A stretch of DNA of 64,000 nt from the NCBI GenBank assembly GCA_944333345.1, contig CALVKW010000001.1, forward strand, positions 5,594-69,593, given 5' to 3'. Origin of the DNA: an uncultured Bacilli bacterium. GTDB taxonomy: Bacteria; Bacillota_I; Bacilli_A; RF39; UBA660. The notes below the pieces were generated by a model that saw only the letters and a list, made by a program, of their open reading frames with translations, was not told the origin of the DNA and searched no databases. Each line of letters starts with the position of its first letter. The stretch's first letter is position 1. The position numbers and the translations under genes were made by a program. Shown here piece by piece: positions 1,927 through 43,098 of the stretch.

Positions 1927-2841
1927 TTATTTATATTTTTTAGATTTAGAAGATGGATGAAAGAAAGGAACATCATTAACCCAGTCATCAATAATCTCTT
2001 CAGTTAATGCGTATTTTCCCCGATTAGCATATCCCAAGCAATGCTTTTCAATATGAAAGTCACTTCCACCACTTTTTAGCAACCCATATTGATCACAATA
2101 TCCCAATAAGAAATTTATTTGCTCCTCATTATGTTTACGATGACAACATTCAATTCCATCAATAATTCCTTCTTCTCTAAAAGTATCGATAATAGAAACG
2201 ATATTATCTAATCCATACACAAAAGGATGAGCAAAAAATGCCTTGCCACCTGCTTTATGAATTAAAGAAGTGACATAATAAACATCACAAGCATTCTGTG
2301 TATTATCTATATAAAAAGGGCTGGATGGCTCACAAAAATGTTTACGATAAAAAGTACTTCTATCATAGATGCCAAGGGAATCTAAAATAGCTTTATTTTC
2401 CTCATAACCAATAATATCATCTAATAAAACATCATTTGCCATATTATGAGCACTATTTATCTTTAAATCCTGTGTGTAACAAATCTGTAAACCATCACAT
2501 ATTGACTTCAAATGATTTAAAATAGACGTTTCCTTATCAACAGTAGTATGAACAAACCCTCTTTTGATAATTTCACTTTTTCTCATAACATCTAAATCGA
2601 TACCATATCCTAACATATCAAACAAACGTCCTTGATAACAAAATTCCAATTCAACACCAGGAATTATTTTTCCACTATAAGTAGAAAAAATATCAATCTC
2701 TTCTAAATCACGATAGGCATTAATATTATTATGATCTGTTATAGAAATAATTTTAAGTTTTTTTAATTCTGCCTTCTCCAAGATTTCTTTAGTCGTAAAA
2801 TCCCCATCAGAATTAACAGTATGAATATGTAAATCAATCAT
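1927..2841 (-). CDS. PHP-domain metal-dependent phosphoesterase
   Basis: N-terminal MIDLHIHTxxSDG signature of the PHP (polymerase/histidinol phosphatase) fold. Confidence 0.75.
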   Translation of the reverse strand: MIDLHIHTVNSDGDFTTKEILEKAELKKLKIISITDHNNINAYRDLEEIDIFSTYSGKIIPGVELEFCYQGRLFDMLGYGIDLDVMRKSEIIKRGFVHTTVDKETSILNHLKSICDGLQICYTQDLKINSAHNMANDVLLDDIIGYEENKAILDSLGIYDRSTFYRKHFCEPSSPFYIDNTQNACDVYYVTSLIHKAGGKAFFAHPFVYGLDNIVSIIDTFREEGIIDGIECCHRKHNEEQINFLLGYCDQYGLLKSGGSDFHIEKHCLGYANRGKYALTEEIIDDWVNDVPFFHPSSKSKKYK

Positions 2842-2861: not shown

Positions 2862-4154
2862 TTAATTTTCATCAGCTGGCATCAAAACTTCTTTACCACC
2901 CATATAAGGTTGCAATACTTTAGGAATTCTAATACTTCCGTCTTCTTGATAATTATTTTCAAGGAAAGCAATAAGACCACGAGGAGTCGCAACCACGGTA
3001 TTATTCAAAGTATATAAGAAATAAGTTCCTTTTTCTCCTTTTTTACGAATACCAAGGCGTCTAGCTTGAGCATCTCCTAAGTTAGAACAACTTCCAACTT
3101 CAAAATACTTCTTTTGTCTTGGACTCCAAGCTTCTACATCACATGACTTAACTTTTAAATCAGCAAGATCCCCACTACAACATTCAAGTTGTCTTACCGG
3201 AATATCCAAACTTCTAAAGAAGTCAACAGTCAACTTCCACATCTTTTCATACCAATCCATAGACTCTTCAGGTTCACAGATAACAATCATCTCTTGTTTT
3301 TCAAATTGATGAACACGGTAAAGTCCTCTCTCTTCTAATCCATGAGAACCACCTTCTTTTCTAAAACAAGGAGAATAACTTGTCATATGAATAGGAAGTT
3401 CGCTATCCTTAATAATTTGATCTTTAAATTTACCAATCATAGAATGTTCACTAGTTCCAATTAAATATAAATCTTCTCCTTCAATCTTATACATCATAGC
3501 TTCCATCTCAGGAAAAGACATAACCCCAGTAACCACATCACTATGAATCATAAATGGTGGAATAGCATAAGTAAATCCAGCATCAATCATATAATCTCTA
3601 GCATATGCAAGCATAGCTTCATGAAGACGAGCAATATCTCCTAGTAAGTAATAAAAACCTTGTCCACTAGTTCTACCAGCTGCATCTTTATCCATACCAT
3701 GAAATCTAGCTATAATATCAGCATGATAGGGAATTTCATAATCTGGAACAACGGGATCCCCAAATTTTTGTACTTCCACATTTTCGCTATCATCACGACC
3801 AATGGGAACAGAAGGATCCATAATCTGAGGAATTACCATCATACGATCCTTAATCTCACGAGAAAGTTCTTCCTGCTCTTTCTCTAAGGCACTAATTTCA
3901 TCAGCAGTCTTCGCAATATCGGCTTTAATTTTCTCAGCCTCATCTTTTTTACCTTCCTTCATTAATTTTCCAATTTCGCCACTCATACGATTTTTATCAG
4001 CTTTTAATCCATCAGCTTTTACTTGTACTTCACGTACTCTCTTATCCATATCATAAACTTCATCTACCAAAGGAAGTTTTTCATCTTGAAACTTCTTTTT
4101 AATATTTTCCTTTACTAAATCCTTATCTTCTCTAATTAATCTAATATCTATCAT
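2862..4154 (-). CDS. serS: Serine--tRNA ligase
   Basis: N-terminal coiled-coil arm and class II core motifs (GFTYAIPPFM..., GTSEHSMIG) over a typical length of 430 aa. Confidence 0.95.
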   Translation of the reverse strand: MIDIRLIREDKDLVKENIKKKFQDEKLPLVDEVYDMDKRVREVQVKADGLKADKNRMSGEIGKLMKEGKKDEAEKIKADIAKTADEISALEKEQEELSREIKDRMMVIPQIMDPSVPIGRDDSENVEVQKFGDPVVPDYEIPYHADIIARFHGMDKDAAGRTSGQGFYYLLGDIARLHEAMLAYARDYMIDAGFTYAIPPFMIHSDVVTGVMSFPEMEAMMYKIEGEDLYLIGTSEHSMIGKFKDQIIKDSELPIHMTSYSPCFRKEGGSHGLEERGLYRVHQFEKQEMIVICEPEESMDWYEKMWKLTVDFFRSLDIPVRQLECCSGDLADLKVKSCDVEAWSPRQKKYFEVGSCSNLGDAQARRLGIRKKGEKGTYFLYTLNNTVVATPRGLIAFLENNYQEDGSIRIPKVLQPYMGGKEVLMPADEN

Positions 4155-4156
4155 AT

Positions 4157-5089
4157 CTATACCTCTCTTCTAAATAATTTATTATAACTATTTTTATATA
4201 ACACTTTATCAATATCTTCTTCTGTAAAAGTATCCTTCAATAAAGCTCTAATTTGCTTACCAACCATACCATAATCAAAAATCTGTATATCATCCTCATC
4301 TCCAAATAAAGCTGGCCCAAATTTCATATCATCCGTAGAAACACCAATCGAGTCAATGCCAAGTAAGTCCCGAACATGAACGATATGCTCTACATACTTC
4401 TTAGAAAGTTCTTCTCTATCTTCACTCGAGGAGACAAATGGCCCATAAGAAACAAGTCCGATAACCGGTGATAATTCTTTTAAAGATAGTAACTGCTCAT
4501 CACTCAAATTTCTAGGATGAGAATATAAATCATAACAATTCGAATGACTAGCAATCACAGTAACATCTTTTCCCTTTCTTTTTTCTTCTTTTAAAAGCTC
4601 TATAGTATCAGAAAAAGTAGCAGGATTCATATGTGATAAATCAATACTAATACCTAAATCAACTGCTTTTTGAAGTAATTCTTTACCTTCATCAGTAAGT
4701 CCCTCTTGACTACGATTACCAGAGCCATAACGATTCTTATTATTCCATACAAGTAAAATATTACGAAGACCTAATTTATAAAGTTCCTCTAACTCTTCAG
4801 GACTATGAATAAAGTCACAACCTTCAATACTATAAACGACATCCAAATTAGGAAAATATTTTTGAAATAAATGAGTCGCTATACGAAATCTTTCAATAAC
4901 ATCAATAGGTTCAAACAACTCGCCCATCTCTTCCTTCATTTCCTCTTCATTCATAAAATAAAGATTAGCGACCACTCCTCGAACTTCATTTTCTTTATAA
5001 TACTCTTGCACTTTCTTTATATAACTAAAATCATTTTTCTTATAACAATAATATAAAATGGATAATAAATCATAATGTAAATCAATCAT
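4157..5089 (-). CDS. Membrane dipeptidase, peptidase family M19 (renal-dipeptidase-like). Likely start is MIDLHYDLL at 5089.
   Basis: M19 blocks are present: LLVWNNKNRYGSGN, GLTDEGKELL..LGISIDLSHMNP, VIASHSN..HPRNLSDEQL. Its stop codon lies 2 nt before the serS ATG, indicating translational coupling. Confidence 0.7.
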   Translation of the reverse strand: MIDLHYDLLSILYYCYKKNDFSYIKKVQEYYKENEVRGVVANLYFMNEEEMKEEMGELFEPIDVIERFRIATHLFQKYFPNLDVVYSIEGCDFIHSPEELEELYKLGLRNILLVWNNKNRYGSGNRSQEGLTDEGKELLQKAVDLGISIDLSHMNPATFSDTIELLKEEKRKGKDVTVIASHSNCYDLYSHPRNLSDEQLLSLKELSPVIGLVSYGPFVSSSEDREELSKKYVEHIVHVRDLLGIDSIGVSTDDMKFGPALFGDEDDIQIFDYGMVGKQIRALLKDTFTEEDIDKVLYKNSYNKLFRREV

Positions 5090-5101
5090 AAAACCATCTC
5101 C

Positions 5102-5325
5102 TAAAAACAAAAAAAGAACAGTACAAGGAGTGCAAATGCACGGTACCATCCTTTTTTTTACTCAAAGTGTAACGAACTTCTCCGGAATAATTCATCTATA
5201 GAGTAGATAAATAAGTCTTTAATATCGTTTCCACCAACCACGATTTCTCTCTAATTAAAGTTTCTTATTATTAGTTCTAATCATCGATTTGTTAATAGTA
5301 TATACCATTTTTTACAAATTATCAA
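5102..5325 (-). promoter_or_regulatory. Candidate T-box riboswitch leader (promoter, T-box motif and intrinsic terminator) upstream of the dipeptidase-serS operon
   Basis: On the minus strand the motif AAAAAAGGAUGGUACCGUG matches the T-box consensus AAUUAGGGUGGUACCGCG in 11 of 13 core positions. It overlaps the 5' arm of a long hairpin (GGAUGGUAC...GUACUGUUC) followed by a U-run, placed immediately before the RBS AGGAGAUGG and the ATG. A sigma-A-like promoter sits upstream: TTGATA, 17-nt spacer, TATACT. Serine codons occur in the leader (UCU-A, UCC-G). Confidence 0.55.
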
Positions 5326-6476
5326 TCTTTTTTACAGGTATTAACATATTCAGGCATTTGAACACTATCCATCTTCTCTATTTCACTCATATGAAGCAAT
5401 TTAGAATCTACATTATCAAAACCATACTCTCCATCAGTAAGAGTAACAAAATACTGATAATTATTTTTCTTTTTAACAACTCTAATATATCCTTTTAGTT
5501 TCCCTCCATTCATAGAAGAACGGATAGGAAGAAATGAATACATGGTTAAATCACTAGCATTAGAGAATGGAATATAATACTCTCCATCTTTCTCTGTAAT
5601 CATATTACCATCACAATTATAAATACCATCTACAACATCTGTGTTAACTGTATTAACGAAAGAACTGACATCTAAAACATAAAATATTTCTCTGCAAATA
5701 TATGCAGTTGGTGTAAAGGCAAATCCCAAAAAAACTAAAAAGAACAGTATAGAATAAACAAAAGCTGGTATTTGAGCATTTCTTCTTTTCCCACTAGTGA
5801 CAAACTGTGGATACTTTTCACCATTCCCTTCATAAACAGCTCTATCATCGATAGCGATAATAGGTAGCATAACAAAAGGGAAAAACAAAGTAAGCCAACC
5901 ACTTTTACCAAAAACTCTTCCCAAGCGATAATTTGCATATAACGCATAAATCTCTCCAAAAATGGGAATAAGTAAAAATAAAAATTTCCATCCATTACCT
6001 ACGGCAATATCAAAATAAGCATATTGACTATAAAATGGTATTAAAGGAGTAAACCCAGAATACCCCCCCTTCATATAAATAGCGGAATTAACGATGATAA
6101 AAAAGGTTACAATAAAATATATAATACAAACAACGAAAAGAAAGCTGAGAGAATAATTTAACCAAAAATAAGCAAGTCCTCCTAAAATGATAGTAAAAAG
6201 TAGCAACAAAAGAATTGCCGATTTAGTATCAATAAAACCCTTCTTATTTTTAGTCTTTGTCTCATAAGTTCTACCAGCAAACTCAACAGTATCAACTTCA
6301 TGTTTCTTAGGATCATTATAATCTTGATTAGCTTTATCAAACTCTTCCGGCGTAATATAGGTTTTCATTTTCTGGTTATCCGGATGATCATAATTCAAAG
6401 CACCACACTTCATGCAATATCTTTGCTTAGAATCCATCTCAGCACCACATCTAGGACAAATCATATCAAACACCAC
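5322..6476 (-). CDS. Polytopic membrane protein with an N-terminal zinc ribbon (CPRCGA..CMKCGA)
   Basis: CxxC..CxxC motif at the N-terminus followed by multiple hydrophobic helices. Confidence 0.5.
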   Translation of the reverse strand: MVFDMICPRCGAEMDSKQRYCMKCGALNYDHPDNQKMKTYITPEEFDKANQDYNDPKKHEVDTVEFAGRTYETKTKNKKGFIDTKSAILLLLLFTIILGGLAYFWLNYSLSFLFVVCIIYFIVTFFIIVNSAIYMKGGYSGFTPLIPFYSQYAYFDIAVGNGWKFLFLLIPIFGEIYALYANYRLGRVFGKSGWLTLFFPFVMLPIIAIDDRAVYEGNGEKYPQFVTSGKRRNAQIPAFVYSILFFLVFLGFAFTPTAYICREIFYVLDVSSFVNTVNTDVVDGIYNCDGNMITEKDGEYYIPFSNASDLTMYSFLPIRSSMNGGKLKGYIRVVKKKNNYQYFVTLTDGEYGFDNVDSKLLHMSEIEKMDSVQMPEYVNTCKKD

Positions 6477-6522
6477 CCTATCTATTTACTAGTTTATCAC
6501 GATAAGGAAGAAAAAAAAAGAC

Positions 6523-6783
6523 CTATTTGGCCTCTATAATTAACTTAATAGCAGTACGTTCCTCTCCATCAATAGCAATATCTTGAAAAGCTGGAATACA
6601 TACTAGATTTTTCCCAGAAGGAGCAACAAATCCTCTAGCAATCGCAACTGCTTTAATTGCTTGATTAAGTGCTCCAGCCCCAACAGCTTGAATTTCAACA
6701 GTCCCCTTCTCACGAAAGACATTAGCTAAAGCTCCCGCAACACTATTAGGATTAGATTTACTACTTACTTTCAATGTTTCCAT
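6523..6783 (-). CDS. spoVS: Stage V sporulation protein S
   Basis: METLKVSSKSNPNSVAGALANV...AVGAGALNQAIKAVAIARGFVAPSG...CIPAF..IDGEERTAIKL is near-identical in pattern to B. subtilis SpoVS (86 aa). An RBS, AGAGAGGAA, lies before this ATG. The track ORF carries a spurious N-terminal extension. Confidence 0.9.
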   Translation of the reverse strand: METLKVSSKSNPNSVAGALANVFREKGTVEIQAVGAGALNQAIKAVAIARGFVAPSGKNLVCIPAFQDIAIDGEERTAIKLIIEAK

Positions 6784-6844
6784 AAATATAAATTCCTCTC
6801 TTTCTATATCAATAATATATGAATGAAAGAAGAAAATATGATAC

Positions 6845-7753
6845 TTAATCAACTTTTTGAATTGCTTCTTTAATAACCCGGATACTACGGTTTAATTTTA
6901 GAGATTCCTCTTCAGTTAAATCAACAAATACTCTTCCCTTAGCCCCTCTTTTATTAACAATAGTAGGAACCCCAATAAACACATTATTTTCCTTATCATA
7001 AGTAGAAACTGTAATGATAGTATTTTCATCTCCCAAAATAGCATTCGTAATATAAGCTAAACACATACCGATACCGTAATAAGTCGCACCTTTTCTATCA
7101 ATAATTTTATAGGCTGCATTTTTAACTTCTTCGCTAATAGCATCTTTTTCAGCATCAGATAAAAATTTATCTATATTTTGTAATCCTACAGTAGCATGAT
7201 TCCAAGGAACAAATTCACTATCACCATGTTCGCCTATAACATAAGCATGAATGTTTTTAGGACCTATCCCCAACTTTTCTCCAATTAAATAACGAAGACG
7301 AGAGGTATCTAAACTTGTACCACTTCCCAAAACACGATGATAATCAAACTCAGAATATTTCCATGTAAGGTAGGTCATAACATCAACAGGATTTGTTGCG
7401 ACTAAAAAGATACCTTTAAATCCGCTTTTGACTACTTCCTTAACAATAGACTTAAAAATTTTACTATTTTTAGAAATCAAATCCATTCTAGTTTCTCCAT
7501 GTACTTGACTAGCACCAGCAGCAATAACCACAATCTTAGCATCACAACAATCATCATAGCCACCACATCGAATATCAATTTTGGAAGGAGCAAAAGCAAG
7601 ACAATGATTTAAATCCATCACTTCACCTTCCACGCGTTCATGATTCACATCCACTAATATCAATTCATTTACATTAGTTCGTTGATTAAGTAATGCATAA
7701 GCATAACTCATTCCAACATTACCGCATCCAATAATAACAACTTTATTATGCAT
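6845..7753 (-). CDS. ldh: L-lactate dehydrogenase
   Basis: NAD-binding motif VVIIGCGNVG and LDH core blocks. An RBS, GAGGAGGAG, precedes the internal MHNK start. Confidence 0.9.
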   Translation of the reverse strand: MHNKVVIIGCGNVGMSYAYALLNQRTNVNELILVDVNHERVEGEVMDLNHCLAFAPSKIDIRCGGYDDCCDAKIVVIAAGASQVHGETRMDLISKNSKIFKSIVKEVVKSGFKGIFLVATNPVDVMTYLTWKYSEFDYHRVLGSGTSLDTSRLRYLIGEKLGIGPKNIHAYVIGEHGDSEFVPWNHATVGLQNIDKFLSDAEKDAISEEVKNAAYKIIDRKGATYYGIGMCLAYITNAILGDENTIITVSTYDKENNVFIGVPTIVNKRGAKGRVFVDLTEEESLKLNRSIRVIKEAIQKVD

Positions 7754-7998
7754 ATTACTCCTCCTCATCATTTGCATTCCTACATTTTTTTAATTCTCAA
7801 AATTTTCAATCATACAATTATTTGCATCTTCACCAGCGTACTTTTCAAGAACTTCATCTTTTGATTCTAATAAGGATACATCAATTGATAATCCTTTACT
7901 TTATCAGATGTAACTATTCTTTCCCCAATGTATAAATTGTCTCGAAAACCGCAAGCCAAGCCTCACTGATACTTTCAATTTTTCCAAAACAATTCACA

Positions 7999-8592
7999 TT
8001 ACTTATTAAGCCCTTTCAAAAATTCACATATATCTTGAGCAACAACTTTATCATGATCATTTTGAATAGCCTGTGCAAGTTCTTCTTTTGTCCAAACCAC
8101 AAGAGACAAATCATTTAAAATATCATTAAATGTTTGTACTGTACTTGAATCATCAGAATTTCTTTCTAATTCATAATGATCTCCCATGAAACAATTAAGC
8201 TTTACCGTCAGTTGAACACCATCAGAAGTAACATAATCCGTTCTGTCAAATGTTCTGACAAAACCATTTTTCACATCAAGTACTTTAAGTAATACCCCAA
8301 TTGCTTCATAGGATTCTGCCGAACAATTTATAGTATATTCTTTTCTTTCAAAGTCTAATGCATTTCCTAACTTAATTTTAATTTTAATGCCTGAATCGCG
8401 AATATCTATAATGAGTCTTCCTTTACCACCAGCTACACTACCAATCGTGGGAATATGATCCGTATCACAATAAATACTAACTTGTCTATAGGTATGTTCT
8501 TTCCAACCTGCTTTTTTTGCATAAATACTAATTTTCTTTGCAATTTCCTTATCTAAGGAACCTCGTACTTCTTTTTCAATAATATTACTCAT
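7999..8592 (-). CDS. CYTH-like domain protein (putative triphosphate tunnel metalloenzyme or class IV adenylate-cyclase-like)
   Basis: N-terminal E-x-E-x-R/K pattern (EKEVRG) and a length of about 190 aa. The match is weak. Confidence 0.35.
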   Translation of the reverse strand: MSNIIEKEVRGSLDKEIAKKISIYAKKAGWKEHTYRQVSIYCDTDHIPTIGSVAGGKGRLIIDIRDSGIKIKIKLGNALDFERKEYTINCSAESYEAIGVLLKVLDVKNGFVRTFDRTDYVTSDGVQLTVKLNCFMGDHYELERNSDDSSTVQTFNDILNDLSLVVWTKEELAQAIQNDHDKVVAQDICEFLKGLNK

Positions 8593-42744: not shown

Positions 42745-43098
42745 ACAAATTAATATAAATAAGCCATGTTCTGTTCCTGTTCCCAGGCGACAAACATTTA
42801 TCTACCATTACTGGTCCCTAACTCCATTCGTTTCTTTTGTTAGAGCTCCCCTACCAAATTTGGGTTTCTCGCTCGCGGGGTTTACCACGTTTCACTCTTT
42901 TGTTTCCAAAAGCCTCGTCACTGCGGCACGTTATGGAATAAATCATATCAAAGACTTAGATTATCTCCCGCCGTTAGCAATAGCTACCTTAGGTTATTTT
43001 TTCCCTAAGCACGAACACTACAATCATCACAGACTGTGCGAGCATGGACTTTCCTCTAATATTAAAATATCAGCGTTTGTCTATATATTAATTGTCAT
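42745..43098 (-). ncRNA. rnpB: RNase P RNA, type B (Bacillus-type)
   Basis: The minus-strand sequence contains universally conserved blocks also found in B. subtilis rnpB: GAGGAAAGUCCAUGCUCGCAC, GGUAAACCCC..GAGCGAGAAACCCAAAUUUGGUAGGGGA, and 3' ACAUGGCUUA. The segment is locally GC-rich and sits directly downstream of gpsB, as in Bacillus. The ends are approximate. Confidence 0.85.

Follow-up and report, generated by a model that had tools for sequence, protein, structure and literature searches.

The minus-strand leader that precedes the genes for a peptidase family M19 protein and for seryl-tRNA synthetase (serS) in a 64,000-nt stretch of DNA from an uncultured Bacilli bacterium (contig CALVKW010000001.1, positions 5,594 to 69,593; hereafter the window) is very likely a serine-specific, transcription-attenuating T-box riboswitch acting on a two-gene operon, with the M19 hydrolase first and serS second. 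A Ser-specific leader over an M19-serS operon had been proposed in a first-pass annotation of the window, and the proposal holds: UCU-A occupies the specifier position, Pfam and NCBIfam models identify the two gene products, and 64 of the 67 related loci in which serS is linked to the M19 gene show the same arrangement. The switch itself is ordinary, as a T-box before serS is textbook; less ordinary are the lack of Stem III, a terminator built on the T-box strand, and a peptidase as cargo. All evidence is computational. Homology to the Rfam model RF00230, the sequence motifs, covariation, the two alternative folds with their energies, the conservation of the operon, and the rarity of the terminator geometry were computed directly.

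RF00230 aligns over its full length (model positions 1–219 of 219) to 5293–5123 of the minus strand with 63.6 bits, corresponding to an E-value of 1.2e-13 in the local search and 1.8e-11 over the entire 64-kb window. The alignment covers AGAGA, GGUUGGUG, the F-box, and the T-box. The T-box motif with UGGU, which the first-pass annotation had placed in the gap upstream of the M19 gene, is thus present and forms part of a full-length match, while no further T-box was detected by RF00230 in the window at E ≤ 0.01. By homology and by all tRNA-contacting motifs in its sequence, the element is a T-box. Its predicted parts are the following (window positions):

5195–5287, minus strand: Stem I with GA/K-turn base, specifier loop, AG bay, and distal loop, from the RF00230 alignment.
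5246–5250, minus strand: AG bay AGAGA, aligned to AGAGA of the model; four of five positions invariant, the fifth nearly so.
5229–5239, minus strand: Stem I distal loop GGUUGGUGGAA, from the alignment; G68, T70, G71, A74, and A75 invariant.
5205–5207, minus strand: specifier codon UCU (Ser), followed by the purine A at 5204, from the RF00230 alignment.
5185–5193, minus strand: miniature Stem II hairpin GAAUUAUUC, from the covariation of helix 6.
5170–5184, minus strand: Stem IIA hairpin CGG-AGAAGU-UCG and F-box CGUUA, from the RF00230 alignment.
5154–5169, minus strand: A-rich single-stranded linker at the usual site of Stem III, whose columns are deleted in the RF00230 alignment.
5125–5153, minus strand: T-box and antiterminator with helix A1 (AAGGA/UCCUU), bulge UGGUACC, and helix A2 (GUGC-AUUU-GCAC), from the RF00230 alignment.
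5103–5124, minus strand: terminator 3′ arm GUACUGUUC (5116–5124) and U-tract UUUUUUUGUUUUU (5103–5115), from minimum free energy (MFE) folds.

A scan of species-representative genomes yielded 80 related loci (L001 to L080), all in metagenome-assembled genomes (MAGs) from the gut that are labelled as uncultured Bacilli, Tenericutes, or Mycoplasmatota, including Candidatus Faecimonas; homologues of the M19 protein are metagenome-derived only. A profile built from the family leaders recognizes the window leader with E = 5e-43 and detects T-boxes ahead of the M19 gene at 65 loci, among them 64 of the 67 with linked serS. In the alignment of 56 leaders (A2), the antiterminator-state structure is paired in 87.5% of cells, and both partners have changed in 25 pairs. 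The observed pairing and covariation values were reached by 0/500 shuffles, and slid controls are 34–52% paired. Covariation is found in Stem I, in the short Stem II, and in the A2 helix. Helices 1–5 of Stem I are 72–99.6% paired, and 16 of their 20 pairs show compensatory changes; A1 is paired in 100% and A2 in 99.1% of cases, and three of the four A2 pairs show compensatory changes. The AG bay and the distal loop, to judge by their motifs, would make the platform for the tRNA elbow.

The specifier UCU (T96, C97, T98) is invariant in 56/56 aligned leaders, and the A that follows is nearly so; one sub-clade displays the textbook context GAA-UCU-A. Of the two serine codons followed by a purine to which the first-pass annotation had pointed, both UCU-A and UCC-G occur in the leader, yet only UCU-A stands at the specifier position, whereas UCC-G lies within Stem II/IIA. 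The UCU specifier differs from the reported serine specifiers, AGC and UCC (PMC8002221).

The short leader had also been taken for a minimal, glyQS-like T-box without Stem II. This part of the first reading fails: the leader does have a covarying miniature Stem II, an IIA hairpin, and an F-box, and lacks Stem III instead. Helix 6, the miniature Stem II, is 81.8% paired and shows compensatory changes in all three of its pairs; in relatives it comprises 5–6 bp, far below the Rfam consensus length (21 model positions are deleted). Helix 7 (IIA) is 83.9% paired. The F-box reads CGUUA in the window and CCGUUA in most relatives, with C129, G130, T131, and T132 invariant, and a 5-bp GAAGU/ACUUU IIB pairing can be drawn in the sub-clade of the window. 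Stem II and the IIA/B pseudoknot with its F-box are absent only in Gly T-boxes. The leader shares with the glyQS T-box its shortness (about 200 nt) and transcription attenuation, but displays the reverse pattern of lost and retained elements, in that the miniature Stem II, IIA, and the F-box are kept and Stem III is absent.

The second departure from the canonical layout concerns the terminator. Read along the minus strand, the gap holds the promoter, the structured leader, AAGGAUGGUACCGUGCAUUUGCACUCCUU (5153–5125), GUACUGUUC (5124–5116), UUUUUUUGUUUUU (5115–5103), AGGAGA, and ATG. Within this order, AGGAUGGUACCGUGC is the T-box sequence that forms the antiterminator with the 7-nt bulge UGGNACC, and the T-box motif itself reads AAAAAAGGAUGGUACCGUG, with UGGU at 5148–5145. 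The terminator is a 9-bp stem of GGAUGGUAC and GUACUGUUC with three G-U pairs, followed by the U-tract UUUUUUUGUUUUU. Its 5′ arm is the T-box strand GGAUGGUAC itself, including UGGUAC of the bulge, while the A2 hairpin remains at the tip and UCCUU is pushed into an internal loop. The hairpin had been described in just this form by the first-pass annotation (9 bp, three G-U pairs, built on the T-box motif and followed by U-tract, ribosome binding site (RBS), and ATG), and in the family its helix is 90.4% paired over the 56 leaders. Folding, which had been proposed as a check, yields two mutually exclusive structures, an antiterminator of −7.8 kcal/mol and a terminator of −19.0 kcal/mol including an A/U extension (core −11.9 kcal/mol), with the AGGA strand common to both. 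RNAalifold recovers the same terminator helix unguided. In eight of its 13 pairs, variation is confined to the 3′ arm (from G-U to G-C or from U-A to U-G), and leaders with UGGC in the bulge in place of UGGU have G for A at the partner position of the terminator arm. Some relatives have an arm that reads ACCA or GCCA.

Textbook T-boxes have the T-box sequence on the 5′ side of the antiterminator, whose 3′ side then joins the terminator (PMC8002221). This canonical strand exchange is seen in the experimentally tested serA T-box of Paenibacillus polymyxa, in which UCGUCCCU pairs with the T-box and the U-run of the terminator is required for repression (PMC8002221). The serA leader shares serine specificity, the bulge UGGU, and an intrinsic terminator with a U-run with the leader described here, but it spans 280 nt, contains Stems I, II, and III, carries an AGC specifier, and controls the serine biosynthesis gene serA (PMC8002221). 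Applied to T-boxes at large, one and the same classifier assigns the T-box-strand geometry to 63/65 family members and to 1/89 generic T-boxes. The control T-boxes were drawn from metagenomes, 89 for the terminator geometry and 114 for the fold energy.

Stem III is likewise absent from the family. The linker between F-box and T-box is A-rich and 15–20 nt long, and its mean MFE over the 56 leaders is −0.13 kcal/mol compared to −0.18 kcal/mol for shuffles; in only 2/56 leaders does it fall below −1 kcal/mol, and RNAalifold predicts no hairpin in this linker. The 32 nt upstream of the T-box fold with a mean of −2.5 kcal/mol in the family as opposed to −8.2 kcal/mol in the 114 unrelated T-boxes. 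The purine flanks of the missing stem (GAGUA ... AA) are kept while the hairpin is gone. As orthologues that pass the Rfam threshold also lack Stem III, we treat its absence as a variant within the T-box family rather than as a ground for exclusion.

A comparison within the lineage is provided by a second T-box in the MAG of L080 (L080:1381–1632, plus strand), which belongs to the same T-box family and scores 112.6 bits. In contrast to the serS-linked leaders, it has a full Stem II, a Stem III, and a canonical terminator that captures CCCAAA, the 3′ strand, while the T-box strand stays free. In view of the classifier counts and of this second T-box, the loss of Stem III and the terminator geometry belong to the serS-linked element and are due neither to the lineage nor to the folding method. 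The L080 T-box precedes a gene for a free-standing aminoacyl-tRNA editing domain (PF04073; L080:1690–2268, plus strand), and its candidate specifier looks like AAC (Asn).

It is improbable that the architecture is canonical after all, with Stem III replaced in the A-rich linker by a non-Watson-Crick or tertiary equivalent, and with a terminator register that is an artefact of nearest-neighbor folding. Weak A-U hairpins of 2–4 bp can be drawn in some members, such as UUU-GAGU-AAA in the window, and one family member (L028) does have a canonical terminator. However, the linker MFE equals that of shuffles in 54/56 leaders, and downstream of UCCUU the window offers nothing complementary to GCACUCCUU except the 5-nt RBS. 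Moreover, the classifier separates 63/65 family leaders from all but one of 89 controls, and the comparative fold by RNAalifold gives the same helix as the single-sequence folds.

In the mechanism that we infer for this T-box, Stem I would offer the specifier UCU to the anticodon of tRNA-Ser, while the tRNA elbow would rest on the AG bay and the distal loop. With uncharged tRNA, the 3′ NCCA end would pair with UGGU in the 7-nt bulge and hold the weak antiterminator (AAGGA/UCCUU plus the GUGC hairpin), and RNA polymerase could read on through both genes of the operon. With charged tRNA, the nine bases transcribed next, GUACUGUUC, would pair with the T-box strand GGAUGGUAC. This pairing would displace UCCUU and cover the bulge bases meant for the tRNA end, and the resulting hairpin, which abuts the U-tract, would end transcription in vivo. 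As the terminator captures the 5′ (T-box) strand of the antiterminator, its arm and the acceptor end of the tRNA would compete for the same four bulge nucleotides. Consequently, serine shortage would switch on the putative dipeptidase gene and serS together.

In the manner of actinobacterial ileS T-boxes, the freed 3′ strand of A1 might control translation, either in place of attenuation or besides it, by pairing its CUCCU with AGGAG of the RBS. The two sequences (5126–5130 and 5098–5102) are complementary over 5 bp, and UCCUU is unpaired in the internal loop of the terminator fold. Yet this pairing amounts to just −4.5 kcal/mol over a 23-nt loop, a UCCU-like sequence is automatic in every T-box, and a strong hairpin followed by UUUUUUUGUUUUU, kept in 63/65 relatives, is the signature of transcription termination. 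We therefore regard a translational contribution as highly improbable, and sequestration of the Shine–Dalgarno sequence by CUCCU was rejected as the main mechanism in view of its −4.5 kcal/mol.

Several observations weigh against a functional serine-responsive attenuator. First, in the RF00230 search that the first-pass annotation had named beforehand as a check, the match has E = 1.8e-11 over the window, but its 63.6 bits lie below the Rfam gathering score of 93, and a default Rfam run on the full window reports RNase P class B only and no T-box. The score is low because 21 positions of Stem II and all of Stem III are deleted and because the S-turn motifs are AU-rich variants. The orthologous leaders L020 and L021 exceed the gathering score with 95.8 and 102.2 bits; these are the only two of 16 tested family leaders to do so. 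Second, the IIB pseudoknot pairing is no better across the family than in shuffles (4.0 vs. 3.8). Third, pairing of UCU with GGA or UGA, the anticodons usual in bacterial tRNA-Ser, would involve a G-U or U-U wobble, and ARAGORN and Rfam searches found no tRNA-Ser gene in the window or in loci L001–L080. Fourth, the missing Stem III casts some doubt on how reliably the element would tell charged from uncharged tRNA. Fifth, the T-box strand is nearly invariant, and the support for the terminator accordingly consists mostly of one-sided variation with few double compensatory changes. Finally, the controls were picked by the exact motif AGGGTGGTACCGCG, which biases the sample toward canonical elements.

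Some of these features would also be expected of a decaying relic that no longer senses tRNA and serves as a constitutive leader or as a plain attenuator with read-through set otherwise. Besides the score below the gathering threshold, these are the loss of Stem III, a vestigial Stem II, and degenerate S-turn motifs in the specifier loop, with AAUA and UUA in place of AGUA and GAA. However, little or no variation is seen in specifier, AG bay, distal loop, F-box, and bulge across 56 leaders from species whose M19 proteins go down to 45% identity. Further, the helices covary, and a relic is not expected to retain its specifier in 56/56 leaders or the complementarity of its terminator arm through substitutions. 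Decay is thus a very unlikely explanation, and we retain the serine-specific attenuator.

The leader lies in an intergenic gap of 232 nt on the minus strand, between the stop codon (5322–5324) of an upstream DUF5684/zinc-ribbon open reading frame (ORF) and the ATG of the M19 gene (5089–5087). Promoter, RBS, and genes are arranged as follows:

5320–5325, minus strand: −35 hexamer TTGATA, from a consensus scan; 10/12 matches together with the −10 hexamer, at a 17-nt spacer.
5297–5302, minus strand: −10 hexamer TATACT, from the consensus scan and positional conservation.
5097–5102, minus strand: RBS AGGAGA of the M19 gene, from the sequence; most aligned relatives have a similar purine-rich RBS before the start.
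4157–5089, minus strand: gene for an M19-family, renal-dipeptidase-like protein of 310 aa, first in the operon (PF01244, E = 1.8e-46).
2862–4154, minus strand: serS, seryl-tRNA synthetase of 430 aa, second gene (NCBIfam TIGR00414 with 399.6 bits; PF02403 and PF00587).

The promoter TTGATA-17 nt-TATACT was found where the first-pass annotation had seen it. Promoter-like hexamers are not enriched in the AT-rich region of the leader according to the consensus scan, and since a consensus match by itself is not enriched in AT-rich DNA, the promoter call rests on conservation: a −35/−10 pair scoring at least 9/12 stands at a fixed distance from the leader in 57/62 related loci. By the position of the −10 hexamer, transcription would start near 5290, about 7 nt downstream of TATACT.

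The stop codon of the M19 gene (TAG, 4159–4157) is followed by 2 nt (AT) and then by the ATG of serS (4154–4152), all on the minus strand, which bears out the spacing reported earlier; the RBS of serS (GAGG) is located within the 3′ end of the M19 gene. With 2 nt between them, the two genes are probably translationally coupled. Downstream linkage of serS to the M19 gene is found in 67 of the 80 loci, and in 54 of these 67 the junction spans −14 to +5 nt, with 14 ATGA overlaps. A PHP-domain gene (1927–2841, minus strand) follows serS after 20 nt, with no terminator predicted between them; its product has weak matches to RNase RNM and to 3′,5′-nucleoside bisphosphate phosphatase. As a candidate third operon member, it was rejected from the conserved unit, as it lies downstream of serS in 0/67 related loci.

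The M19 protein matches Peptidase_M19 (PF01244) over residues 2–303 with 159.2 bits (cut-off 26), and no NCBIfam model names it. The closest solved structures are those of Listeria Lmo2462 (3neh, 3lu2); like these and human DPEP1 (1itq), the protein is covered by PF01244 over its whole length. Similarity to 3neh is distant (E = 2.7e-15, residues 85–300 only); SHMN, SHSN, and TDD have aligned counterparts in that structure, and a WNN motif is shared with Lmo2462. H5, D7, E89, H153, H182, and D253 are invariant in 16 homologues (alignment A1), and the positions aligned with the metal ligands of DPEP1 (HxD, E89, H153, H182, and D253) are among them; the correspondence to the DPEP1 ligand numbers is the one we assume. 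In this family, the binuclear metal site is made by HxD, a bridging Glu, and two His, with an Asp as catalytic residue. By these residues, the M19 protein is probably an active metallohydrolase.

At 11 loci (L065–L071, L074, and L076–L078; e.g., L068:4001–4975), a second M19 paralog with about 46% identity stands without serS, and at none of these did the leader profile find a T-box. T-box-linked M19 gene and paralog form pairs within the same MAGs (L001/L068, L008/L066, and L013/L077). The presence of an unlinked paralog in the same MAGs suggests that the T-box-linked copy is specialized. The neighbors of the paralog at L068 (CvpA, RNase HIII, and ORFs of unknown function) are uninformative.

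Control of serS by a T-box is reported to be conserved in at least 29 of 34 Firmicutes (PMC2494555). Compared to the Bacillota serS leaders represented in RF00230, the present leader shares the Ser specifier in the Stem I loop, the motifs of AG bay and distal loop, the F-box, the antiterminator with its UGGN bulge, the terminator with its U-tract, and serS as a regulated gene. It differs in that serS comes second behind the M19 gene, Stem III is lacking, Stem II is cut to 3–6 bp, and the T-box strand is the 5′ arm of the terminator. We hold with no more than moderate confidence that this architecture has not been described before, as the comparison does not extend to the most extensive surveys of T-boxes (Vitreschak 2008; MMBR review of 2009). 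The gene content is unusual, too. Comparative studies list synthetases, biosynthetic genes, and transporters as T-box-regulated classes and leave peptidases unmentioned (PMC3766115, PMC2494555). Within the literature searched, there is no report of a T-box-controlled M19 gene and none that links T-box, serS, and dipeptidase, in agreement with the first-pass annotation, which had called an M19 dipeptidase-family gene at the head of a serS T-box operon unusual.

Additional genes accompany the operon in some relatives. In 16 species, an HD-domain ORF of about 165–170 aa, absent from the window, is found at this locus; it has a weak PF13328 (HD_4) match and motifs resembling those of RelA/SpoT hydrolases (HL..V and LLHD..ED). 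It lies between T-box and M19 gene, between M19 gene and serS, or just outside the operon. Examples are L012:3507–4004, L013:941–1438, L016:3495–4004, L018:3513–4004, L040:2520–3026, L041:3764–4276, L051:2748–3263, L062:4896–5408, and L063:4924–5430, and in L004, L006, L007, L009, L010, and L011 it stands just upstream of the promoter. The MAG of L063 carries two serS-like genes (5433–6671 and 6824–8101) after the T-box, M19, and HD genes. In single species, other genes are inserted between Ser T-box and M19 gene, namely a fusion gene with a cytidine/deoxycytidylate deaminase domain in L014 (L014:3154–3999) and a 145-aa ORF in L016 (L016:3065–3502). Elsewhere in the window, a SpoVS homologue (6523–6852, minus strand) and an L-lactate/malate dehydrogenase gene (6845–7777, minus strand), annotated as ORFs that overlap by 8 nt, lie upstream of the locus, and a class B RNase P RNA (42755–43089, minus strand; 285 bits) fits an organism of the Bacillota/Mycoplasmatota type.

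For the T-box family, a terminator that competes with the tRNA 3′ end for the bulge would represent a strand-exchange logic other than that of the textbook, found in about 1% of the generic T-box sample. More than 60 covarying natural leaders without Stem III are a ready test of what Stem III does. Since 14 of the 16 tested leaders and the window leader fall below the Rfam gathering score, standard annotation misses most leaders of this family.

For the organisms, the specifier offers a clue to the function of the enzyme, as T-box specifiers have been used previously to assign transporter substrates (PMC2494555). By the same type of reasoning, the Ser specifier points to a serine-related role for an uncharacterized M19 subfamily in uncultured gut Bacilli. 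With the M19 gene subject to a Ser specifier in 64 species, it is reasonable to predict that the enzyme may contribute to the serine supply, one possibility being that it frees Ser from dipeptides; a link to peptide scavenging, possibly of Ser-containing dipeptides, had already been suggested by the first-pass annotation. Tentatively, and with somewhat more doubt than conviction, we put forward the wider view that these leaders constitute a clade-wide group of Stem III-less T-boxes in at least 65 species-level genomes of gut Bacilli, in which the OFF arm mimics the tRNA 3′ end and an M19 enzyme belongs to the serine-starvation regulon. If true, this view would lead one to expect that these organisms, with their few biosynthetic pathways, have a peptidase that releases serine.

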